A DNA stretch of 64,000 bases from an uncultured Trueperaceae bacterium (GTDB lineage Bacteria > Deinococcota > Deinococci > Deinococcales > Trueperaceae), in the NCBI GenBank assembly GCA_963815215.1, contig CAWFFU010000011.1, positions 288,001-352,000 of the forward strand, in the 5' to 3' direction. Shown piece after piece: positions 202 through 13,748 of the stretch; position 1 is the stretch's first letter; each line of letters begins with the position of its first letter. A program made the translations under genes and the position numbers. The notes below the pieces were generated by a model. The model was given only the letters and a program-made list of their open reading frames with translations, was not told where the DNA came from and did not search any database.

Positions 202-383
202 GGTGGCGGCCCGCCATCTTACCCGCTTCCCGCCGGCGGCAGCGTTCCGTCAGCCCCACGGCCGAGACGGGACAACGATCCCTCCCGGCACACCGTGACG
301 CCGATGTTAAGCTCCTGTTTGGCGGATTTCACGTGTTCTCACCGACGAGCAGCGTAGTATGCACGTGTCGGGCAGGTCCCGAC

Positions 384-456
384 CTTGGAAGCGATGAAGC
401 CTGTCTCACCACGTGGGCGCTTGAGACGGGTGGAGCGAGTAGCGCAACCGGCCAAG
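384..456 (+). ncRNA. c-di-GMP-II riboswitch aptamer 1
   Basis: P1 CTTGG/CCAAG; GGAAGCGATGAA...GGAGCGAGT kink-turn strands; stem CCTGTCTCA/TGAGACGGG; loop TGGGCGCT pseudoknot with AGCGC; 3' AGTAGCGCAACCGGCC matches the class II consensus AGUAGUGCAACCGAC; candidate -10 TAGTAT at 355-360. Confidence 0.9.
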
Positions 457-573
457 ATGAGTCACCCCTCATCGACAGCCTGACAGTGCCCACGAACGAC
501 CCCTTCCGGGGTCGACCAGGGCGACCACGGTATCCGAGCCCGGTGCATCCGCGCCGCACGCAACGGTCCCGAG

Positions 574-648
574 GCCTTGGACGCGATGAAACCTGTCCTG
601 CACTTGGGCGCTTGGGACAGGTGGAGCGAGTAGCGCAACCGGCCAGGC
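574..648 (+). ncRNA. c-di-GMP-II riboswitch aptamer 2 (tandem copy)
   Basis: P1 (GC)CTTGG/CCAGG(C); GGACGCGATGAA; stem ACCTGTCC/GGACAGGT; loop TTGGGCGCT; identical GGTGGAGCGAGTAGCGCAACCGGCCA 3' half; compensatory stem changes relative to copy 1. Confidence 0.88.
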
Positions 649-712
649 AGGTCCGCAGGTTTGCAGGCTTCCCATCGTCGGTCAGGCGCCCCGATCTCTT
701 CGCGATGCGAGG

Positions 713-1720
713 ATGGCGATGGCGCAGATGAGCAACCAGCCGAGCCAGACACCTACACGGCGCACCCGCCGCCCCGGTCGGCATGCCATGATCGGTTTCT
801 CCGCCATGCTGGCCGCGCTGCTGCTGGCCACCGGCTGTTCGGGCGTGGCCACCGAGCCGCCCCAGGCGGTCACGAACGCCACGGATGTCAGACCGATGTT
901 CGGCGCCTTCACTTACGGCGGCGTCTGGCAGGGCATGCAACCCGTCCACCAGCTCGAGGACCTGCTCGGCCGAAAGCTCGACGTGGTGCACTGGTTCATG
1001 AGCTGGGACACGCCCTATGACGTTGCGCTGGTCGAGTCCGCCATGGCCGGCGGACGCCTGCCGATGATCACCTGGCAGCCCTACCACCAGTCCGTCAGCG
1101 ATATCGCCGCCGGCACCTACGACGACCTCATGCGGAGCTTCGCTCGCGGTGTACGCGCGACGCCCGGCCTCGTCTACGTGCGGCCCTTCCCCGAGATGAA
1201 CGGCGACTGGGAGCCGTGGAACGGGCAGCCCGCCGAGTTCGTGAAGGCGTGGCGTCGCATGGTCGACATCTTCCGCGCAGAAGGCGCCGACAACGTGCGC
1301 TGGGTGTGGTCGCCGAACATCACCGACCAGCCCCGCACGACCGCCAACGCCATGGAGAAGTACTACCCGGGCAGCGCCTACGTCGACGTCCTCGCCCTGG
1401 ACGGCTACAACTGGGGCACGTCGCAGGGCTGGAGCCAGTGGCGTAGCTTCGACCAGATCTTCGCCGAACCCTATGCCCGCATCACCGCTCTGGGCCCCCA
1501 GCCGGTGTGGGTCGCCGAGGTCGCCTCGACCAACAAGGGCGGCGACAAAGCGGCCTGGGTCGCGAACATGCTCAGCAGCACCAAGTTCCCTCGCATCCGC
1601 GCGCTGATCTGGTTCAACGAGAACAGCGACCTGGATTGGCGCCTGGACAATTCGCTGGCCGTCATCCAGGCCGCTCGCGCGAGCCTCACCCCGAGTCTGC
1701 AGACGACCGCCAGCCGCTGA
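713..1720 (+). CDS. Glycoside hydrolase family 26 (beta-mannanase/glucanase-like), probable lipoprotein; start may be 719 or 728
   Basis: RPFPEMNGDW acid/base motif, WVWSPN, YYPG..YVDVLALDGYN, VWVAEVAS nucleophile; Arg-rich N-terminus, hydrophobic stretch and lipobox LLATGC. Confidence 0.88.
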   Translation: MAMAQMSNQPSQTPTRRTRRPGRHAMIGFSAMLAALLLATGCSGVATEPPQAVTNATDVRPMFGAFTYGGVWQGMQPVHQLEDLLGRKLDVVHWFMSWDTPYDVALVESAMAGGRLPMITWQPYHQSVSDIAAGTYDDLMRSFARGVRATPGLVYVRPFPEMNGDWEPWNGQPAEFVKAWRRMVDIFRAEGADNVRWVWSPNITDQPRTTANAMEKYYPGSAYVDVLALDGYNWGTSQGWSQWRSFDQIFAEPYARITALGPQPVWVAEVASTNKGGDKAAWVANMLSSTKFPRIRALIWFNENSDLDWRLDNSLAVIQAARASLTPSLQTTASR

Positions 1721-1787
1721 GGCTAGCCGGCCGAGCCCTTCGCGTCTCTGTCTCTGAACACGACCGCGCGCGCCACGCCACTTCGCG

Positions 1788-4595
1788 TCAGCGCGCGCTG
1801 GCCGTGTCCGTCGGCGCCACGACGGCGCGCGAGCCCCCCGAGAACAACCGCTGCTGGACCGCGCTGTACACCGCCCCGTCCTCGACCCCGTTCGCCGCCA
1901 CGATGGCGCTGCTGCGCCGGTACGCGGCGGCGAGGTCGAGCTTGCCGGAGGCGACCTCGCCGCTCAACGCCACCAGCTGCCGTTCGGGTGCGGCGAGCGA
2001 CGAAGGATCGACCCGGTAGGCGGCGTAGGCGCTGCCGAGTGCGTCGGCCAACGGGCCGAGGTGCACCATGGCCTCCACCGGCCCGCGCAGTTTCGGCGCG
2101 ACCCGGCCGCTGCGCGTTACGCCGTGCAGCGGATTGATGTACAGAGCGTAGGCGACGGCGTCGTCGGTGACGACCGGGCGCGCCAGCGACCACGCCAGTT
2201 TCGCCGCGCCGGCACAGACCGAGAAGTCGGGATCGAAGACGTTGAACGAGCCGCTCAGCAGGTGGGGATTGTACAGCGCGGAGTTCGGATCCTCCGAGAC
2301 CGCCCGCAGCAGCGTCAGCGCGTCGGACGTCATCTGCGACAGTCCCTTGTCGCCGGTCTCCCCTACCGCCAGGGGGTCGAGGTAGGACTCGTTGATCAGG
2401 ACCTGCAGCATGAGGCGCACCGGAACGTCGTAGGTCGAAGCCGCCTGCTCGATGTAGGGCTCGATCGGGGCGAGCCGGCCCAGCATGAGCAGCTCGAACG
2501 GGTCCAGTGGCTGGTAGGCGCCGGCCGAGCCCGGGAGCGGCTGCGGGGCGGCGCTGGGATGCCGTAGGAAGACCGGCCGGCAGTACGCGGACAGCGTGGA
2601 GATCGGCTCGAGCACGGACCCGGTGCCGGAGCCGGCCCTGGAGCCGGCCGCGGAGCCAGTCGCGGACGGCGCGAGAGCGGTCCGTGTCGCGGCACTGTCG
2701 GTCCGGGAGATCACGGCGAAGGCCCCGGGGGCCGCCAGCGCGACCGGCCCTGCCAGCGTGACGCGGACCTGTGGCGCCGTCAGCGACAGCGCAGGGAGCG
2801 GCGAAGAGCGGAGCGGCAGGGCGATCGAAGCCTGGAGCAGCGGGATGGTGGCGCTTTGGGAGCCCGGGCTCAGCAACGCGGGAGCCACCTGCGCGACCGG
2901 CAGCGGCAGGTCGTCGTGTTGCGCCATGTCGAGCGGGGTCGTGCGAGCCAGCAGCCGCTCGATCGCGAGCTGGTCGGCACCCGATGCGGGCGCCAGCGCC
3001 AGGATGGCCACGAACACCACCGACAGGGCGGCGACGATGGAGGCCGCCGTTCCAACGGTGCGGCCGTCGACACCCCGCGTGGTGGGCCGCTCCCACGCCA
3101 CGCCCTGCGTGCGCGTGACCACGCTGCGGCTCGCCGCGCGGCGTTCGGCCAGGAACGCCGGGATCACGCTGGTGGCCGCCGCCACGAAGCTGACGGGGTT
3201 GGCCACCTTGAGAACCATATAGGGCAACCACGTGCTGACCAGCCGTCGACCCGCGAAGCGCGCCGCGGAGCCGCGCCGCCGGCGACCGTCACGCGCCTGC
3301 ACGTAGAAGCCCGAGAAGGTCATGAGGCCGGTCGCTGCCAGGTCCAGCCCGAACCAGGTGGCCAGGATGCGCACCAGGTCGGTCGTTCCGATCGTTCCCG
3401 CCGCGGTGAGGGCCAGCATCACCGGCAGCAGCAGTAGCAACAGCAACCCCAACAGGTTCTCGACTTGCGCAGCCCACAGCGTGAAGCGCACGTTGGAGCT
3501 CATCACCCTGTCGCCCGGATCCCCCAGGACCCGTTTCAGGGCGTTCTGGATGCCGCCGCCGTTCCAGCGTTCGATCTGCCGCAGGTAGCCGCCGACGTGC
3601 GCGGGATCCTCGGTGTACATCAGCGCGTCGCCCACGAAGCGGGCGTTCCCGCCGTGACGAAGCTCGATCACGTCGTGGCGGTCGAAGGCCTCCTCGAAGG
3701 GCAGCTCGGCGCCGTCCACGACGATCCGGAAGCCGCGCCGGGTGAGCTCGGCGGGCGTCAGGCGCTCGTCGTGCCGCGGCACTCGCTGCGCCGTGAGCGT
3801 CAGGTCGTGGTCCTCGGTCTGGGTGTCGGGCGGCATGGGCAGGACGTTGCGCCGCACCACGAAGCCGCAGCCGACCACCGTGTACAGGCGGCTGGCCCCC
3901 CACAGGCCGCCGTCACCCAGCATGCCGGCCTGGCCCCGGCGCAGCACGGCGGCGAAGGCGTACTCGGCCGAGCGACCGGCCGCGATGAAGCGCTGGGTCG
4001 GCCCGGCCCCCTCAGGAACGTAGGACATCACGGACCCGGACTGGAGGGCGTAGTCCTCGAGCACGGGCCGGCCGGCGATCCAACGCAGGCGGTAGAAGTT
4101 CCTCTCGAGCGCGGCGACGAACTCCGGATCGAAGACCGTGTCGCCGTCCACCAGAAGCACGCGCTCGGAACTCAGGATGCGGCTCGCCACCAGGTTGTTG
4201 ATCGCCTCGGACTTGGCCGTCCGCTGCGCGTACACCACCACCGCCACGCCCATGGCGTGATCGTGGTGGCTCCAGCGTTCGAGCGTGGCGCTCAGCCCCG
4301 GGGCACGGCCGGCCGAGTCCAGCTCGAACCCGTGCCCGACCAGGGTCGCGCCGACGACCTCGTGGGTGCGGTCGGTCCCGCCGTTGATGCTGACGATGAG
4401 TTCGTCGGGCAGGCGGCGCTGCGACAGCAGCGACGTCAGCGCCCGCCTCGCTCCGACCTCTTCGTTGTACATCGGCGAGACGACCGCCAGCCTGTCGGGT
4501 CCGCGGACGGGCAGACTACGGTCAGGGACCGTACTGAGCGCTGCGTTGAGAAGGGTTGTGGGCATCCCGGACAGGCCGAAGAAGTTGGGCATCAC
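1788..4595 (-). CDS. Processive glycosyltransferase family 2 fused to a C-terminal SLT/lysozyme-like transglycosylase domain
   Basis: PMYNEE, INGGTD, K..A.N, VDGDT (DxD), TED and RQIERW (QxxRW) motifs, several TM helices, Ala/Pro/Ser linker, then IEQAASTYDVPVRLMLQVLINESYLDPLAVGETGDKGLSQM...FDPDFSVCAGAAKL (SLT ES..GL.Q signature). Confidence 0.85.
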   Translation of the reverse strand: MMPNFFGLSGMPTTLLNAALSTVPDRSLPVRGPDRLAVVSPMYNEEVGARRALTSLLSQRRLPDELIVSINGGTDRTHEVVGATLVGHGFELDSAGRAPGLSATLERWSHHDHAMGVAVVVYAQRTAKSEAINNLVASRILSSERVLLVDGDTVFDPEFVAALERNFYRLRWIAGRPVLEDYALQSGSVMSYVPEGAGPTQRFIAAGRSAEYAFAAVLRRGQAGMLGDGGLWGASRLYTVVGCGFVVRRNVLPMPPDTQTEDHDLTLTAQRVPRHDERLTPAELTRRGFRIVVDGAELPFEEAFDRHDVIELRHGGNARFVGDALMYTEDPAHVGGYLRQIERWNGGGIQNALKRVLGDPGDRVMSSNVRFTLWAAQVENLLGLLLLLLLPVMLALTAAGTIGTTDLVRILATWFGLDLAATGLMTFSGFYVQARDGRRRRGSAARFAGRRLVSTWLPYMVLKVANPVSFVAAATSVIPAFLAERRAASRSVVTRTQGVAWERPTTRGVDGRTVGTAASIVAALSVVFVAILALAPASGADQLAIERLLARTTPLDMAQHDDLPLPVAQVAPALLSPGSQSATIPLLQASIALPLRSSPLPALSLTAPQVRVTLAGPVALAAPGAFAVISRTDSAATRTALAPSATGSAAGSRAGSGTGSVLEPISTLSAYCRPVFLRHPSAAPQPLPGSAGAYQPLDPFELLMLGRLAPIEPYIEQAASTYDVPVRLMLQVLINESYLDPLAVGETGDKGLSQMTSDALTLLRAVSEDPNSALYNPHLLSGSFNVFDPDFSVCAGAAKLAWSLARPVVTDDAVAYALYINPLHGVTRSGRVAPKLRGPVEAMVHLGPLADALGSAYAAYRVDPSSLAAPERQLVALSGEVASGKLDLAAAYRRSSAIVAANGVEDGAVYSAVQQRLFSGGSRAVVAPTDTASAR

Positions 4596-4796
4596 GAAGT
4601 CCTATCCGTTGGAGCTCTTCCACTCGAGGGCGGCGGCGGGGGCGGGGCGCCGCACTTTCGTCGCGCCTGTCGGGCCGCGACGACCCGCTGTGAAACCTCT
4701 CGCTCTCTATGTAACACTGCTCTCCCCGCCCTGTTGTCCAGCCGTCACAGCCCTGTGCGCTGGGTGGTTTACGATCGTGTGATTTGGGAGGTGCGC

Positions 4797-5420
4797 ATGG
4801 CACTTCACATCAGCGGTAAGCTCGTGGCCGTAGGCCTCGTCCTGGCCGCACTGATCACCGCATTCAGCGCCCCCCGCAGCGTACAGAACGCGGGTGTCGC
4901 CTTGACCCTCACCCCAACCGCCACGGTCCTCACCACGCCTGCCTCGCCGGCGCCGCTGCGGGCCGGGTCGGTCGGGCCCGAGGCCAATCCTGTGTTCACG
5001 CTGCGGGCCACGGGTTACAACTCGATGGTCGACCAGACCGACGCCACCCCGTTCATCACCTCGACTGGACAGCGTACCCGTTTCGGGATCATCGCGGTGA
5101 GCCCTGACCTACTGGCCCACGCCCTGCCGTACGGCAGCCTGGTGCGCATCCGGGACCTCGGCAACTACTACACCGGCCGCGGCTACGGGCACTACCAGAG
5201 CCTGCTGGACGGCCAGGGACTGTTCATCGTCGAGGACACCATGCACTACCGCAAGCGCGATCAGATCGACATCTGGTTCAGCGACTACGCCAGCGCGGTG
5301 AACTGGGGCATGCGCAAGGTGAGCGTCGAGGTCATCCGTTATGGGCGCAACGGCCCCAAACTCGAACCCTCGCGTGCCAACGACTTCAGCGGGACACCGC
5401 AACTGTTCGCCTCGCGCTGA
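4797..5420 (+). CDS. Secreted 3D-domain (MltA/Sps-like) cell-wall protein
   Basis: SD GGGAGG before ATG 4797; signal peptide; ATGYNS..QTD.TPFITSTG, IIAVSPDLL, LPYGS, IVEDT, IDIW (three-Asp 3D motif). Confidence 0.85.
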   Translation: MALHISGKLVAVGLVLAALITAFSAPRSVQNAGVALTLTPTATVLTTPASPAPLRAGSVGPEANPVFTLRATGYNSMVDQTDATPFITSTGQRTRFGIIAVSPDLLAHALPYGSLVRIRDLGNYYTGRGYGHYQSLLDGQGLFIVEDTMHYRKRDQIDIWFSDYASAVNWGMRKVSVEVIRYGRNGPKLEPSRANDFSGTPQLFASR

Positions 5421-5561: not shown

Positions 5562-6743
5562 GTGCGGAGCCTCGTACCGTACCTGGCGTGGCGGCACGTC
5601 CGCCGACGCGGCCTGCAATCCGGCCTCACCGTGGTCGGCGTGGCGGTCGGCGTCATGGTCCTGATCGTCGCGCTGTCGCTGACCAACGGCTTCGTGGACG
5701 AGCTGATCCGCAGCACCCTGAAGGCCACCCCCATGCTCACGCTCGAGAGCTACATCTCCGGGCAGACGGTGCCGAACGACCCCGCGGTCGGCCGGGCCCT
5801 GGCGGGTCGCCCGTCGGTCACTGCGGTCGCCCCCTTCCTCAGCACCCAGGCGCTCATCGCGCGGCGCGCCAGCGCCAGCCTCGGGATCACCGCCCGGCAG
5901 GGCTACACCCAGATCGTGGGCATCGACCCGGCGCAGGAGACGCAAGTCCTCGACCTGCCGATCCTCCAGAAGCAGGCGACGGCCCTGGCCCGGCGGGACG
6001 GCATCGTGCTGGGCGCCTCGCTGGCGCAGCAGCTCGGCGTGATCGCAGGGGACAAGGTGGTGCTGCGCGACATCACGGGCCACACCGCCGAGCTCACCGT
6101 GGCAGGCACCTTCCGCGTCGGCAACGAGCTCATCGACGGGATCGCGTCGTACATGTCGCTGGCCAACCTGCAGCAGTACATGCACGTGGGGGACCGGATC
6201 AGCGGCTACCACTTGCGACTGGCCGACCCGCAGCGCGCTTCGGCGCTCGGTGTGACGCTCGGCGACGCCTTCGGCCTGCGCCCGGTCTCCTGGGACAGCC
6301 TGTTCGCCAACCTCATCAGCCAGCTCCGCCTGCAGAAGGCGGTCATCGCGGTGGTGGTGTTCCTCATCGTCCTTGTCGCCGCCATGGGGATCGCCAATAT
6401 CCTGGTGTTGACGGTATCGGAGAAGACCGAAGAGATCGCCATCCTGCGGGCGCTGGGCGCTACCGAGCGGCAGGTGCTGGCCGTCTTCACGCTGGAGGGG
6501 CTGCTGCTCGGCGCCACCGGCACGCTCCTGGGAGCCCTCCTCGGGCTGGGCGTGAGCACCTACTTCCGTCTGCAGCCCTACCCCCTGCCGGGCAACCTCT
6601 ACTTCATCACCCAGCTCCCCGTGCAGCTCCAGCCGACCGACGTGCTGTGGGTATGCGCGCTGTCGATCGGCACCAGCGTGCTCGCCGGGCTCTTCCCCGC
6701 GCGGCGCGCGGCCAACCTCGACCCCGTCGACGTCCTGCGCTGA
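5562..6743 (+). CDS. Lipoprotein-releasing ABC transporter permease (LolC/E, FtsX family)
   Basis: GVAVGVMVLIVALSLTNGF, EKTEEIAILRALGA, PARRAANLDPVDVLR motifs. Confidence 0.88.
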   Translation: MRSLVPYLAWRHVRRRGLQSGLTVVGVAVGVMVLIVALSLTNGFVDELIRSTLKATPMLTLESYISGQTVPNDPAVGRALAGRPSVTAVAPFLSTQALIARRASASLGITARQGYTQIVGIDPAQETQVLDLPILQKQATALARRDGIVLGASLAQQLGVIAGDKVVLRDITGHTAELTVAGTFRVGNELIDGIASYMSLANLQQYMHVGDRISGYHLRLADPQRASALGVTLGDAFGLRPVSWDSLFANLISQLRLQKAVIAVVVFLIVLVAAMGIANILVLTVSEKTEEIAILRALGATERQVLAVFTLEGLLLGATGTLLGALLGLGVSTYFRLQPYPLPGNLYFITQLPVQLQPTDVLWVCALSIGTSVLAGLFPARRAANLDPVDVLR

Positions 6744-7375
6744 TGGACCGGAGCGCTCCGCTCGACCGGGACCGGGCCTGGACCTACTTGCTCGATCTGC
6801 TGACGCGGCGCGACTACACCGAGGCCGAGCTGCGGGCCAAGCTACAGCGCAGGAAGGTGGACGCCGACGTCGCCGACACTCTGCTCGCGCGTTTGCGCGA
6901 GCTCGGTCTGGCCGACGACGCACGCTACACCGAACACTACGTGGCCTCGCGCCGGCGCTCCCGCGGCCGCCTGGCGCTGCGAACGGAATTGCGCCGCAAG
7001 GGCGTCGACCCCTCTGTCGTCGAGCGTGAGCTCGAGCCGCTCACGGAAGGGCAGCAGCTCGAGGCGGCGGCGGCGCTGTTGCGCCGCTTCGCCTGGCGCT
7101 ACCAGCCCGGCAGCACGCGCCGGCGGCGCACCGCGACCCACGCCCAGGAACCCGAGAAGGAATCCGCGTCGGCGCCCGGCACGCCGTCGGGCTCGGGTGC
7201 CGACGCGGGCCGGGACGCGAGCCGGGACGGGGGCCGCGACGCGGAGGCGCAGGCGCGACGCGACGCCCTCGCCGAACGCGCCCGCGCCTTCGCCTTCCTG
7301 GCCCGGCGCGGCTTCACCGGCGCGGTGGCCGGCGACGCGATCCGCGTGCTCGGCTGGTGGCAGGACGCGTCCTGA
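6743..7375 (+). CDS. recX: Regulatory protein RecX
   Basis: LLTRRDYTEAELRAKL, LADDARY, GRLALRTELRRKGV, AFLARRGF; TGATG coupling with the upstream gene. Confidence 0.88.
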   Translation: MDRSAPLDRDRAWTYLLDLLTRRDYTEAELRAKLQRRKVDADVADTLLARLRELGLADDARYTEHYVASRRRSRGRLALRTELRRKGVDPSVVERELEPLTEGQQLEAAAALLRRFAWRYQPGSTRRRRTATHAQEPEKESASAPGTPSGSGADAGRDASRDGGRDAEAQARRDALAERARAFAFLARRGFTGAVAGDAIRVLGWWQDAS

Positions 7376-7457: not shown

Positions 7458-7535
<78 letters not shown>

Positions 7536-9052: not shown

Positions 9053-9123
9053 GCGGACGTCGCCGCTGGTAGGCTGTCATGAGGCCCGACGCCGCCGTGA
9101 CGGGCGGACCCGATAGGAGCTCC

Positions 9124-9585
9124 ATGGCCACCATGACCTTCGCCGACTTCCGGGACGCAGCGGGGCGCGATCTCGGCGTCTCACCCTGGATCGGCATCGA
9201 CCAATCTCGCATCGACGCCTTCGCCGAGTGCACCGACGATCACCAGTGGATCCACGTCGATGCCGAACGCGCGGCCGCCGGCCCGTTCGCCACCACGATC
9301 GCCCACGGCTACCTGACGCTCTCATTGCTGGTGCCGATGCTCGAGGGCGTGGGCGCGTTCCCCGGGGACGGGACCACCGTCGTCAACTACGGCCTCGACC
9401 GGCTGCGGTTCCTCTCACCGGTACCGTCCGCTTCTCGGGTACGCCTGCATGCCCGCGTCGCCGACGTGCGGCCCAAGGGCGACGACCGCCTGCTGGTGAG
9501 CTTCGACTGCGACGTGGAGATCGAAGGCCACGACGGCCCGGCTCTCGTCGCTCAGGTGCTGCACCTACTGGTGGCGCCCACCTGA
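9124..9585 (+). CDS. MaoC-family dehydratase
   Basis: IDAFAECTDDHQWIHVD, TIAHGYLTLSL, NYGLDRLRFLSPV; SD AGGAG before ATG 9124. Confidence 0.9.
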   Translation: MATMTFADFRDAAGRDLGVSPWIGIDQSRIDAFAECTDDHQWIHVDAERAAAGPFATTIAHGYLTLSLLVPMLEGVGAFPGDGTTVVNYGLDRLRFLSPVPSASRVRLHARVADVRPKGDDRLLVSFDCDVEIEGHDGPALVAQVLHLLVAPT

Positions 9586-9610
9586 GTGCGCCTGGGCGGT
9601 GGGCGCTCGC

Positions 9611-10972
9611 CTAGCCTTCGTGCCCGGCGAGGGCGCGGGCGAGACGCCGGGCGATCCCCAGGGCCAGCCCCTCCTCGCCCGGCCGAGTCGCCACCATCAG
9701 ACCCACCGACAGCCCGTCGGGTGTATCGCCGGCCGGAACGCTCGCCGCGGGCGAGGCCAGCACGTTGAACACCGTGGTGTTGCGCAGCATCCGGGCGTTC
9801 GCCTCGAAGTAGGCGCCGTCGTCGCTAAGCGCGTCGATGCGCGGCGGGACGATCGCCAGGGTCGGCGCCACGACCGCGTCCACGCCGGCCAGCTCGGGCC
9901 AGAAGCGGCGCCGAAGGGCGGCCCGGGCGTACCCCAGCCGGATGTAGTCGGCCGACGGCCGGCCGCCGACCTTCAGGATGCGCGCCACCACGCGCGGGTC
10001 CATGGCCTCGCCACGTTCCTTCAGGATCGCTTCGTAGAGGGCGAACGCTTCGTGGCTGGCGAAGCTGCCGTAGCGCCGGTATAGCTCCGGGATCTCCGCT
10101 AGCATCGGCAGCGCCTCCTGCCGCACCTCCATGCCGAGCGCCGCCAGCCGCTCCAGCGCGGCCCGGAAGACCCGCTCGACCGCCGGCTCGAGCTCTGCCT
10201 GCAGCACCGTGGTCGGGGCGAGCACCACCAGCTTCTGAGGCGGCTCGAGAAGGTCGTGGTGGGGTTCGGCCGCCATCGCCTGGTACAGCGCCCAGGCATC
10301 GTCGGCATCACGCGCCAGCGGTCCCAGGGTGTCGAGGGTGGTGGAGAGCGGCACCGCTCCTTCGGTGGGGATGCGACCGTCGGTGGTCTTCAGACCCACG
10401 ATGCCGTTCACCGACGCCGGGATGCGCACCGAACCGCCGGTATCCGAGCCCAGCGCCGCCGCCGCCAGGCCCGCCGCCACCGCCACGCCCGAGCCCGACG
10501 AGGACCCGCCGGGCACGCGCTCGGCGTCGCGCGCGCAGGGCGGCGTGCCGAAGTGGGGGTTGATGCCGATGCCGGAGAACGCCAGCTCGGTCATGGTGGT
10601 GCGGCCCAGGAACACCGCCCCGGCGGCGTCGAGGCGCGCCACCACCGGCGCGTCCTCGTCGGCCGGCGGTCGCTCCAGCAACACCTTGGATCCGGCTGCG
10701 CTGACCTCGCCCTCCATGTCGAGCAGGTCCTTGATAGCGATCGGTACGCCCTGCAACGGGCCGGTGTCGACCCCGGCCCGCAGCAACCGGCTGGCCTCCT
10801 GCGCCTGCCGGCGCGCCCGCTCGGCGGTGACGAGCCGGTACACGAGTCCGCCGGCCGGGTGCCGGTCGATCGCAGCCAGGTAGGCTTCCGTGACGTCGAC
10901 GGGATCGAGCTCGCCCGCACGGTAGGCCCGAGCCAATGAAAGGACGGTCAGGGACGTGGGTTCGGCGGCCAT
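9611..10972 (-). CDS. Amidase signature family enzyme
   Basis: GPLQGVPIAIKD, PGGSSSGS, GSDTGGSVRIPAS. Confidence 0.92.
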   Translation of the reverse strand: MAAEPTSLTVLSLARAYRAGELDPVDVTEAYLAAIDRHPAGGLVYRLVTAERARRQAQEASRLLRAGVDTGPLQGVPIAIKDLLDMEGEVSAAGSKVLLERPPADEDAPVVARLDAAGAVFLGRTTMTELAFSGIGINPHFGTPPCARDAERVPGGSSSGSGVAVAAGLAAAALGSDTGGSVRIPASVNGIVGLKTTDGRIPTEGAVPLSTTLDTLGPLARDADDAWALYQAMAAEPHHDLLEPPQKLVVLAPTTVLQAELEPAVERVFRAALERLAALGMEVRQEALPMLAEIPELYRRYGSFASHEAFALYEAILKERGEAMDPRVVARILKVGGRPSADYIRLGYARAALRRRFWPELAGVDAVVAPTLAIVPPRIDALSDDGAYFEANARMLRNTTVFNVLASPAASVPAGDTPDGLSVGLMVATRPGEEGLALGIARRLARALAGHEG

Positions 10973-12635: not shown

Positions 12636-13748
12636 ATGCGAATCGCCCCGTTCCGCATCGAGCACTACTACGCCAAGTACGAGTTCAGCGCCGGCTTCAT
12701 GCTGTCGAGCTCGGACGCCGAGAGCCGTAGCGTCGGCGAGTTGCTGGCGCTCGAGGAGGGCGCCCTGGAGCGCTTCTCGGAGCAGCGCCTGGGCTACACC
12801 GAAGCACCGGGCTCGGCGACCCTGCGCCACCAGGTCGCCCGCGTCTACGACACCCTGGATGCCGACGACACCCTGGTGTGCACGAGTGCCGAGGAGGGTA
12901 TCTTCCTCCTCTACCACACGCTTCTGGGCCCGGGCGACCACGCCGTGGTGGAGACGCCCTGTTACGAGTCCGCTCTGCAGCTCGCACGCAGCACCGGGGC
13001 CGAGGTGAGCGTCTGGCGGCGTCACGCCGAGGACGACTGGACGCACGACGTGGACGCTCTGGAAGCGCTGCTGCGGCCGAACACCCGGGTCGTGTACATC
13101 AACACGCCACACAACCCCACCGGCCTGCTCATGCCGCGCGCGGTGTACGACCGGGTGCTGGCGCTGGGCCGTGAACGGGATTTCACGGTCTTCAGCGACG
13201 AGGTCTACCGCGAGCTCGAGCACGACCCGGCCGACCGGCTGCCCGCCGCCTGCGACCTGGAGAGCGGCGCGGTGTCGCTCGGGTCGGTGTCGAAGACCTA
13301 CGGCCTGCCCGGGTTGCGGCTCGGCTGGCTCGCCAGCAAGGACCGGGAGCTGCTGCGGCGCGTGATGGAGCTGAAGTACTACACCACCATCTGCAGCCCC
13401 GCCCCCAGCGAGTTCCTCACCGAGCTGGCGCTCCGTCACCGGGAGACGCTGGCGGAGCGCAACCTGGCCATCGTGCACCGCAACCTGCCACTGCTCGACG
13501 ACTTCCTTGAGCGCCATGCCGACCTCCTCGGCTGGGTGCGCCCCAACGCCAGCCCGATCGGGTTCCTGCGCTACCTTGAGCAGGGTGACGTGCAGGCGTT
13601 CTGCGAGCGCGTGGTGGCCGGCGCGGACGTGCTGCTCCTGCCGGGCACCGTGTACGACGAGCCGGGCCACCTGCGCGTGGGGTACGGACGGGCCAACATG
13701 CCCGAAGCGCTCCAGCGGCTCGAGGCCTTCCTGACCCGCGCCGCCTGA
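12636..13748 (+). CDS. PLP-dependent aminotransferase class I/II
   Basis: NTPHNPTG, FSDEVYR, SVSKTYGLPGLRLGW. Confidence 0.9.
   Translation: MRIAPFRIEHYYAKYEFSAGFMLSSSDAESRSVGELLALEEGALERFSEQRLGYTEAPGSATLRHQVARVYDTLDADDTLVCTSAEEGIFLLYHTLLGPGDHAVVETPCYESALQLARSTGAEVSVWRRHAEDDWTHDVDALEALLRPNTRVVYINTPHNPTGLLMPRAVYDRVLALGRERDFTVFSDEVYRELEHDPADRLPAACDLESGAVSLGSVSKTYGLPGLRLGWLASKDRELLRRVMELKYYTTICSPAPSEFLTELALRHRETLAERNLAIVHRNLPLLDDFLERHADLLGWVRPNASPIGFLRYLEQGDVQAFCERVVAGADVLLLPGTVYDEPGHLRVGYGRANMPEALQRLEAFLTRAA

Follow-up and report, generated by a model that had tools for sequence, protein, structure and literature searches.

We describe a locus in a 64,000-nucleotide (nt) stretch of DNA from an uncultured Trueperaceae bacterium (GenBank assembly GCA_963815215.1, contig CAWFFU010000011.1, positions 288,001 to 352,000 of the forward strand). 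This whole stretch is referred to as the window, and coordinates are positions within it unless a related locus is named. On the minus strand, a single gene encodes a predicted family 2 glycosyltransferase (GT2) synthase that continues, through membrane helices and a long linker, into a domain resembling the SLT family of lytic transglycosylases. A convergent neighboring gene encodes a lichenase-type glycoside hydrolase of family 26 (GH26) and is preceded by two aptamers of the c-di-GMP-II riboswitch class (c-di-GMP, cyclic di-GMP). The fusion gene and its parts are as follows.

1788..4595, minus strand: whole open reading frame (ORF) of the GT2 synthase-SLT fusion protein, 935 amino acids (aa) from GTG 4595, with ATG 4592 as the likely start
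3597..4493, minus strand: cytoplasmic GT-A (GT2) catalytic domain, residues ~35-333, predicted from Pfam, invariant motifs, and fold matches
2994..3596, minus strand: membrane part, residues 334-534 (Q340xxRW344 interface helix, transmembrane [TM] helices, amphipathic helix, and loop), predicted from AlphaFold2 (AF2) secondary structure, hydropathy, and loop charges
3066..3128, minus strand: candidate gating loop on the cytoplasmic side, residues 490-510, in which W501 and R503 are invariant, placed by its position relative to BcsA (PMC8892547)
2607..2888, minus strand: disordered Ala/Ser/Leu/Pro-rich linker, residues 570-663, from model confidence (pLDDT < 50) and composition
1833..2606, minus strand: SLT/GH23-like domain plus a helical extension at its C-terminus, residues 664-921, with a lysozyme-like core at ~693-858, from Pfam, AF2, fold searches, and the MltC profile match
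2388..2390, minus strand: codon for Glu736, the putative catalytic residue, which is conserved in all 121 sequences and aligned to the Glu of the MltC Glu-Ser motif

The fusion gene and its distribution

A preliminary description of this DNA, made from the letters alone, had reported a single 935-aa frame at 1788..4595. This was borne out, and the frame is uninterrupted on the minus strand. Because the homologues open with MPNFFGLS, the gene likely starts at ATG 4592 rather than at GTG 4595. The genome that contains the window carries a single copy. Neither a sigma-70-like promoter nor an intrinsic terminator was found within 1600-5000 or 150-1000, and no RNA data set was among the public runs listed as containing the sequence. 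The features that had been listed for the protein, namely the DxD, TED, and QxxRW motifs, TM helices, an Ala/Pro/Ser linker, the Glu of an INES motif, and a GL.Q motif, were all present.

A homologue search of 5.8 billion proteins, with 8000 candidates scored, yielded 155 relatives of the fusion protein at E <= 0.001, and the best 120 of these each had E <= 1.3e-177. By our count, PF01464 appeared in the precomputed Pfam column for 106 of these best 120. They were aligned together with the query, giving a family alignment of 121 sequences with lengths of 817-1265 aa. The residues D150, D152, T260, E261, D262, Q340, R343, and W344 of the GT2 part and E736, S737, G751, and Q754 of the SLT part were each conserved in all 121 sequences. 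When one genome per species was scanned, 121 matching stretches were returned, which represent 61 distinct loci. The record titles of these loci name Trueperaceae, Truepera, Deinococcales, Deinococci, Deinococcota, or no taxon, with the exception of L013 (Gemmatimonas) and L044 (Hyphomicrobiales), both of which are metagenome-assembled genome bins. Locus L038, from a metagenome-assembled genome labeled Truepera radiovictrix, has the gene at 41% identity; T. radiovictrix is a relative that can be cultivated and is not pathogenic. In a 301-genome sample of the phylum, the search recovered the fusion gene from 59 of the 102 members of its own family, Trueperaceae by record titles, and from none of 198 genomes of four other sampled families (0/112, 0/62, 0/14, and 0/10). 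These counts are a floor, as the search had a stricter first look.

The preliminary description had implied that the architecture is rare. It is instead present in more than half of the sampled family genomes and already stands in the databases under generic names ("transglycosylase SLT domain-containing protein" and "cellulose synthase/PNAG synthase-like glycosyltransferase"). The accompanying statement that this architecture is not recognized among characterized synthases still holds, and we found no paper describing the fusion. Literature searches on the fusion, on Truepera with cellulose synthase, and on c-di-GMP-II with Deinococcus and glycosyl hydrolase returned no description of the protein or locus, with subscription journals largely uncovered. 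The ESM Atlas returned only generic GT2 clusters, with a score of 0.84, which is below the meaningful level of 0.9.

An assembly chimera had been named in the preliminary description as a possibility that would refute the fusion, and two genes merged by sequencing error would have the same effect. Some records are compatible with such an artefact. The near-identical database entry P0122, which corresponds to residues 477-935 (window 1788-3167, minus strand), is called as only 459 aa with the start MIPAFL, and in a few genomes the halves lie in separate frames or are cut by a contig end (G181, G217, G222, and G295, and locus L007 with P0123). The P0122 call means that some gene call or assembly splits or shortens the ORF; in the window the frame is fully open. 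By eye, P0122 differs from the window protein by one residue, an R for Q in SPGSQSAT. In contrast, most rows of the genome sample hold both halves in one open frame of 814-1479 aa, and the assemblies behind the 61 loci are independent. Four public runs (two studies) also yield contigs that tile window positions 1700-4700 with zero indels and zero joints and span both the linker and the TM junctions (2454-3053 and 2989-3686, among others), with the best-matching run possibly being the window's own source sample. A chimera was therefore rejected on the basis of the conservation of the fusion across 61 loci and 59 of 102 family genomes and the seamless tiling, and an artefact of either kind is extremely improbable. 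The conservation of the sequence indicates that the fusion is real and under selection.

Domains and membrane topology of the fusion protein

The GT2 part carries the motifs D150-G-D152, T260-E-D262, and Q340-IE-RW344. Pfam PF00535 matched residues 38-81 with 29.8 bits (cut-off, 23.3), and PF13632 (residues 313-398; 26.9 bits) and PF13641 (residues 34-346; 26.8 bits) were just under their cut-off of 27. The AF2 model and hydropathy place hydrophobic helices at 367-398, 404-436, and 511-534 and an amphipathic helix at 441-489. No hydrophobic segment lies before residue 367, and none therefore lies ahead of the GT domain. The loop after the amphipathic helix has the family consensus VTWERP, in which W501 and R503 are invariant. 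In a review of Bcs systems, the interface helix and the gating loop between TM6 and TM7 of BcsA are described as cytosolic insertions, with a gating loop that pivots on R499 and E514 and is followed by two TM helices and a cytosolic PilZ domain (PMC8892547). By analogy, loop 490-510 may gate the active site.

The full-length AF2 model had a pLDDT of 87.6 and a pTM of 0.77. Its top Foldseek matches were hyaluronan, chitin, and cellulose synthases (E 3e-9 to 6e-6). In VIA-align, synthases of the BcsA/hyaluronan synthase type aligned over 370-403 residues, through the last TM helix, with Z of 18-22. Examples are the Chlorella virus hyaluronan synthase (Z 22.3, 394 residues aligned), E. coli BcsA (Z 22.0, 370 aligned), and R. 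sphaeroides BcsA (Z 19.4 and 17.9). The best VIA-align match was the mannosyltransferase PcManGT (PDB 6yv7; Z 25.2, rmsd 3.5, 324 of 346 residues aligned, 20% identity, model residues 5-482), which was also matched by sequence profile (E 0.0058). A PDB search with the single sequence gave nothing at E <= 1, and the matches come from profiles and folds only. Two specific synthase classes were rejected with NCBIfam: the PgaC/IcaA poly-N-acetylglucosamine (PNAG) synthase (TIGR03937) scored 23.4 bits against a cut-off of 422.3, and the NodC chitooligosaccharide synthase (TIGR04242) scored 12.4 bits against a cut-off of 550.

The fusion protein shares with BcsA, class I hyaluronan synthase, and chitin synthase a GT-A domain with DxD, TED, and QxxRW motifs and the order of interface helix, two TMs, long amphipathic helix, loop, and further TM. 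It differs from these synthases in the number of helices. The conserved synthase core, as given in the review, includes two TMs ahead of the GT domain and another two behind the gating loop (PMC8892547), whereas the fusion protein has no TM before the GT domain and the single helix 511-534 after the loop. It also differs from BcsA in that Pfam found no PilZ match at E <= 1, and a lytic transglycosylase-like domain stands at the C-terminus instead. No BcsB-like gene was found among the neighbors examined (16 kb leftward and the genes rightward; the remainder of the genome was not searched).

The best explanation of these features is that the GT2 part is a membrane-embedded synthase of the cellulose/hyaluronan/chitin-synthase type, and polymer synthesis is predicted from the model and motifs. 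Alternatively, it could be a PcManGT-like or NodC-like glycosyltransferase for a short or lipid-linked glycan, with the protein acting in the assembly of a wall glycopolymer. The match to PcManGT, by both structure and sequence profile, is in keeping with this alternative, as is the small number of TM helices (three, none before the GT domain). However, TED and QxxRW are invariant, an interface helix and the W501/R503 loop occur at the position of the BcsA gating loop, and the alignment to hyaluronan and cellulose synthases extends through the last TM helix. The endo-acting GH26-family partner described below also fits a polymer. A short-glycan transferase is thus very unlikely. PcManGT of Pyrobaculum calidifontis, which uses GDP-mannose (PMC12595478), has 346-356 residues and lacks the last TM helix, the linker, and the SLT domain.

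After the membrane part, residues 570-663 form a linker of 94 residues with pLDDT < 50 and a composition of 22% A, 15% S, 14% L, and 11% P. Across the family, 37 to 472 residues separate the SLT domain from the last TM helix. We examined loop charges over the 121 sequences. Loop 484-510 has a mean of 7.0 K+R and a net charge of +5.0, and stretch 437-463 has a mean net charge of about +4.3. In contrast, the 4-residue loop 399-403 has 0.0 K+R, and the three segments after helix 511-534 have net charges of -1.0, -2.0, and -13.5. By the positive-inside rule, the Arg-rich stretches would be cytoplasmic and the C-terminal part would lie outside. The structural alignment agrees with this orientation. 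The model aligned to R. sphaeroides BcsA from residues 110-114 through 545-547, with the model side ending at 537, so that helix 511-534 would correspond to BcsA TM7, running from inside to outside. As there is no TM8 equivalent, the chain would then end outside.

Features of the SLT domain and its relatives are compatible with this topology. Unfused SLT-like relatives have an N-terminal hydrophobic anchor, and in P0188 a cytoplasmic DegT domain is followed by a Pro-rich linker, a TM helix, and then the SLT-like domain. The only cysteines of the SLT domain, C672 and C794, are conserved in 120 of 121 and 121 of 121 sequences, respectively. A C672-C794 disulfide is possible and would fit a periplasmic location. 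The SLT domain is therefore probably extracytoplasmic. The preliminary description had judged this location probable, and loop charges and the BcsA alignment make this the best-supported topology.

The SLT domain contains N-E736-S737 and G751-LS-Q754. Pfam PF01464 matched residues 714-804 with 27.3 bits (cut-off, 21.3), covering positions 2-80 of the 117 in the profile. An AF2 model of residues 664-935 alone had a pLDDT of 92.1 and a pTM of 0.90, and its top Foldseek matches were exclusively lytic transglycosylases (E 2e-4 to 1e-3). In VIA-align, MltF ranked first (Z 12.1, rmsd 2.7, 142 residues aligned), followed by Slt (11.9), MltC (11.6), MltE (10.9), and Slt70 (10.4). The next tier comprised a Ralstonia GH23 chitinase (8.8), a g-type lysozyme (8.6), a GH124 cellulase (8.6), and a GH134 mannanase (6.5). 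When the family profile was searched against the PDB, the E-S...GLxQ stretch aligned to MltC (E 0.0013). The claim that the C-terminus is a lysozyme-like SLT fold retaining the catalytic Glu was thus supported by AF2, Foldseek, VIA-align, and the motifs.

The domain shares the lysozyme-like fold with MltF, MltC, MltE, and Slt70/Slt (Z 10.4-12.1, rmsd 2.7-3.6, 139-155 residues aligned), and the Glu-Ser and GLxQ motifs with MltC. It differs from these family-1 enzymes in sequence, with only 15-19% identity, and in having a four-helix extension at 847-917 after the SLT core, the cysteine pair, and a different third motif. Family-1 lytic transglycosylases carry an AYNxG motif; here, the corresponding region has invariant A815-Y816-A817...N821-P822 (AYxxYxNP), with a spacing unlike that of AYNxG. 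A further difference is that the family-1 enzymes are lipoproteins or soluble proteins, whereas the SLT domain here is tethered to a synthase. From sequence and model together, the C-terminal domain is best described as family-1 lytic transglycosylase (GH23/SLT)-like, with a predicted wall-cutting activity.

A profile of the SLT domain, searched against 1.84 billion representatives, matched 110 proteins at E <= 0.001. The 32 strong matches at E <= 1e-30 were full-length family fusions (809-1265 aa) and short pieces, and below this tier the score falls to 1e-17 and weaker. We scanned 39 of the 110 matches with Pfam. No further GT2 fusion was found among these 39. Those scanned in the weaker tier include anchored proteins of ~320-500 aa, three fusions to a polysaccharide deacetylase (CE4; P0167, P0180, and P0220), and one fusion to a DegT aminotransferase (P0188). 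This SLT subgroup may therefore recurrently be tethered to sugar-polymer enzymes. The gene context of an unfused relative was available from one 3.6-kb metagenome contig, where a luciferase-like monooxygenase and a homoserine dehydrogenase lie upstream, and was uninformative.

The GH26 neighbor and the c-di-GMP-II riboswitches

The gene next to the stop codon of the fusion gene and its leader add context that was absent from the preliminary description. The features are as follows.

713..1720, plus strand: lichenase-type GH26 protein with a lipoprotein-like N-terminus (LLATGC), from PF02156, PDB profile, synteny, and co-occurrence
378..462, plus strand: c-di-GMP-II aptamer 1 in the GH26 leader, RF01786, 64.4 bits (gathering score, 53.5)
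573..653, plus strand: c-di-GMP-II aptamer 2 in the GH26 leader, RF01786, 71 bits (gathering score, 53.5)

The GH26 gene is convergent with the fusion gene and lies 67 bp from its stop. PF02156 matched the protein at E 1e-10 (41.9 bits; cut-off, 20.2). A profile of 42 orthologues matched "Endoglucanase H" in the PDB over its full length at E 4.4e-67, whereas its matches to mannanases and xylanases were at E 2.6e-12 or weaker. E161 and E269 are invariant and align to the E of HEANGDW and of AEFAS, respectively, in "Endoglucanase H." We take these PDB chains to be the Clostridium thermocellum lichenase CtLic26A. Lic26A is a GH26 lichenase (PMC7157769).

Of the 61 loci, 47 contain a GH26-like gene; among the 40 with 3 kb or more of downstream flank, 35 do. 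In 45 of these 47 loci it was downstream and convergent, with a median separation of 1297 nt, and eight loci that had lost the upstream synteny retained it. Co-occurrence was also seen at the genome level, with the synthase and GH26 searches made on different samples. GH26 was found in 57 of 60 synthase-positive genomes; the exceptions were G220 and G279, with no match, and G284, which was not among the matches. Conversely, only G147 of the 20 synthase-negative family members listed was GH26-positive, and weakly so (2.9e-68). The tallies for the synthase and GH26, respectively, were 14/14 and 17/18 in genus g9, 8/8 and 10/10 in g3, 0/3 and 0/3 in g2, and 0/3 and 0/3 in g13. The GH26 protein is thus a probable partner hydrolase of the synthase.

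Because the conserved partner is a lichenase-type GH26, the product of the synthase is more plausibly a beta-glucan, maybe of mixed linkage, than a polymer of N-acetylglucosamine (GlcNAc). The preliminary interpretation is therefore upheld in part. The fusion and its topology stand, but trimming of a GlcNAc-containing product, which had been offered as one role for the SLT domain, has become less supported in view of the lichenase-type partner and the low PgaC and NodC scores given above.

Many relatives have two tandem GH26 paralogues and, in between, a glucose/sorbosone dehydrogenase (GSDH)-type gene. Such dehydrogenase genes lie between the synthase and GH26 at 9108-9974 in locus L002, 9724-10971 in L020, 8782-10278 in L028, and 8914-10242 in L033, all on the minus strand of the locus. 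The window has neither the GSDH gene nor a second GH26 paralogue. A partner that oxidizes sugars would be reminiscent of GlxA in the CslA system of Streptomyces.

Both aptamers in the GH26 leader cover the full RF01786 model (positions 1-84 of 84). Ten of the 61 related loci were scanned for this family, and nine contained one to four aptamers each, 18 in total, on the GH26 strand. Where positions were compared, the aptamers were upstream of GH26-like genes. The tenth locus, L013, ends 151 nt past its GH26 match. L002 has a second tandem aptamer pair (12692-12775 and 12879-12962, minus strand) that is farther from the synthase than the GH26-leader pair. For the expression platform of the GH26 leader, no terminator-like site was found in 150-1000. 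The 200-bp leader of the synthase gene contained neither an aptamer nor any other Rfam family at E <= 0.1. The c-di-GMP control would thus sit on the hydrolase gene and not on the synthase. The best-supported reading of the locus is a c-di-GMP-linked exopolysaccharide system whose synthase carries a tethered wall-cutting enzyme and whose polymer is probably a beta-glucan.

Proposed role in polymer passage and the remaining neighbors

Together, these features describe one polypeptide with a cytoplasmic, membrane-embedded GT2 synthase, a long flexible linker, and a family-1-like lytic transglycosylase that is probably periplasmic. We propose that the tethered wall-cutting module eases passage of the synthase's polymer through peptidoglycan, a reading that we consider to have about an even chance of being correct. 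The synthase would polymerize a sugar, most likely glucose, at the inner face of the membrane and push the chain outward as a beta-glucan, possibly of mixed linkage. The transglycosylase would cut peptidoglycan strands within reach of the linker, and the nascent chain would cross the wall there. Processing or release of the polymer would fall to the GH26 lipoprotein next door, whose expression two c-di-GMP-II riboswitches would control. A stronger version is that a single polypeptide makes up the whole exopolysaccharide machine and that export cannot proceed unless its own transglycosylase, leashed above the exit, cuts the wall in cis; this is possible but somewhat more doubtful. A precedent for local remodeling is found in S. 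coelicolor, where CslZ and the monooxygenase LpmP remodel peptidoglycan locally and passage of the CslA glycan is proposed by the authors (PMC9040799).

Several observations weigh against polymer passage as the role of the fusion. Peptidoglycan pores are given as 2-2.5 nm in the Bcs review (PMC8892547), and a single glycan chain may pass pores of this size uncut. The protein has only three TM helices, without the two pre-GT TMs and the second post-loop helix of the conserved synthase core, and a full translocation channel may need oligomers or partners, none of which were found here. PcManGT, a small archaeal mannosyltransferase, gave the best fold match, and to our knowledge this enzyme is not known as a polymer exporter. 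The AYNxG motif of family-1 enzymes is altered to AYxxYxNP. Finally, the synteny and co-occurrence counts are drawn from related, non-independent genomes, and one ancestral gain could therefore produce the same counts.

The SLT-like domain might instead act on the synthase's own product, cutting or releasing the nascent chain, as proposed for BcsZ-type hydrolases. Lysozyme-like folds that act on other glycans were among its matches (the Ralstonia GH23 chitinase, the GH124 cellulase, and the GH134 mannanase), and the deacetylase and DegT fusions show that the subfamily keeps company with sugar-polymer enzymes. However, the best fold matches, which are 2-3 Z units above these, are all peptidoglycan lytic transglycosylases, and the E-S and GLxQ motifs align with those of MltC. 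The conserved GH26 neighbor already provides a dedicated hydrolase. Lytic transglycosylase catalysis also requires the N-acetyl group and the C6-OH of N-acetylmuramic acid, and a beta-glucan lacks the N-acetyl group. Action on the nascent chain is thus quite unlikely.

The SLT domain could also be an ordinary wall-remodeling or wall-binding module, with the fusion serving to anchor or position it, or to hold the synthase at the wall, such as in growth zones, without any role in passage. Membrane-anchored unfused relatives of about 370-420 aa do exist, and a distance from the last TM helix to the domain that varies this widely speaks against an exact geometry. In contrast to what a general anchor would predict, the partner is always this one synthase in at least 120 clusters, with no variety of anchors, and both catalytic centers are invariant. 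Moreover, the gene is absent from family genera that also lack the GH26 partner, and this joint absence is more in keeping with a dedicated accessory system than with housekeeping turnover of the wall. We therefore regard an ordinary wall module as unlikely and retain polymer passage as the preferred reading.

Lytic transglycosylases dedicated to envelope-spanning machines are known, including EtgA of type III secretion, FlgJ, and VirB1. EtgA (Z 7.0 and 5.2) and FlgJ (Z 5.1) were among the fold matches of the SLT domain, and the idea of a wall cutter serving one machine is shared with them. However, EtgA, FlgJ, and VirB1 are separate subunits that serve protein or DNA secretion or flagella, whereas here the link is covalent and the client would be a polysaccharide synthase.

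One parallel is the Streptomyces CslA-GlxA-CslZ-LpmP system, which combines a cellulose-synthase-like GT2 with a glucanase partner and with local wall remodeling, the latter proposed to help the glycan cross a thick wall (PMC9040799). In Streptomyces, the wall-active proteins (a lytic polysaccharide monooxygenase and a glucanase) are separate, whereas here the lytic transglycosylase is in the same polypeptide as the synthase. A GlxA-like oxidase is absent from the window, although GSDH-like dehydrogenases occur in related loci.

BgsA of Sinorhizobium is a bacterial mixed-linkage beta-glucan synthase. A second, RiGT2 of Romboutsia ilealis, is a GT2 enzyme with the D, D, D, QxxRW signature that makes a lichenase-sensitive mixed-linkage beta-glucan and is described as having a C-terminal PilZ domain (PMC10374906). 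In contrast, the fusion protein has no PilZ domain, and c-di-GMP riboswitches are instead found on the neighboring hydrolase gene. The likeness to RiGT2 and other mixed-linkage synthases is indirect, through the lichenase-type GH26 neighbor, and the product here is predicted. The locus is therefore a candidate for a new bacterial beta-glucan system that comprises a minimal, uncharacterized GT2 synthase, a lichenase-type GH26, and tandem c-di-GMP-II riboswitches.

The passage of exopolysaccharides through peptidoglycan is an acknowledged gap. The Bcs review presents wall crossing as an overarching challenge and the recruitment of wall-remodeling enzymes as an unexplored possibility (PMC8892547). 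A family-conserved synthase-transglycosylase fusion is in effect a natural experiment on this question. If the proposed role is correct, this would be the first synthase-dependent system to carry its own wall-opening enzyme, and the possibility raised in the review would become testable genetically, as an E736Q point mutation or deletion of the SLT domain could separate synthesis from wall crossing.

One further conserved gene lies near the synthase, on the side of its start.

4797..5420, plus strand: conserved small protein, divergent from the synthase, with a hydrophobic N-terminus and a weak likeness to YuiC (3D domain)

This protein has 207 aa and a mean column identity of 67% over 37 sequences. 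It had no Pfam match at E <= 10, and its NCBIfam matches were weak only. Its top likeness in the PDB was YuiC, a 3D-domain wall enzyme, at E 0.33 with the single sequence and 0.084 with a profile, which is not significant. Of the 54 loci whose upstream flank reaches 1 kb or more, 36 have it. Its link to the synthase is therefore not a tight one, and its membership in the system is uncertain.

Left of the GH26 leader are tgt and housekeeping genes. To the right, the small protein is followed on the plus strand by a LolE/FtsX/MacB-type permease (5562-6743), RecX (6800-7375), and a tRNA (7458-7531). The order of these genes is shared by 35-36 of the 61 loci and resembles ordinary conserved synteny.

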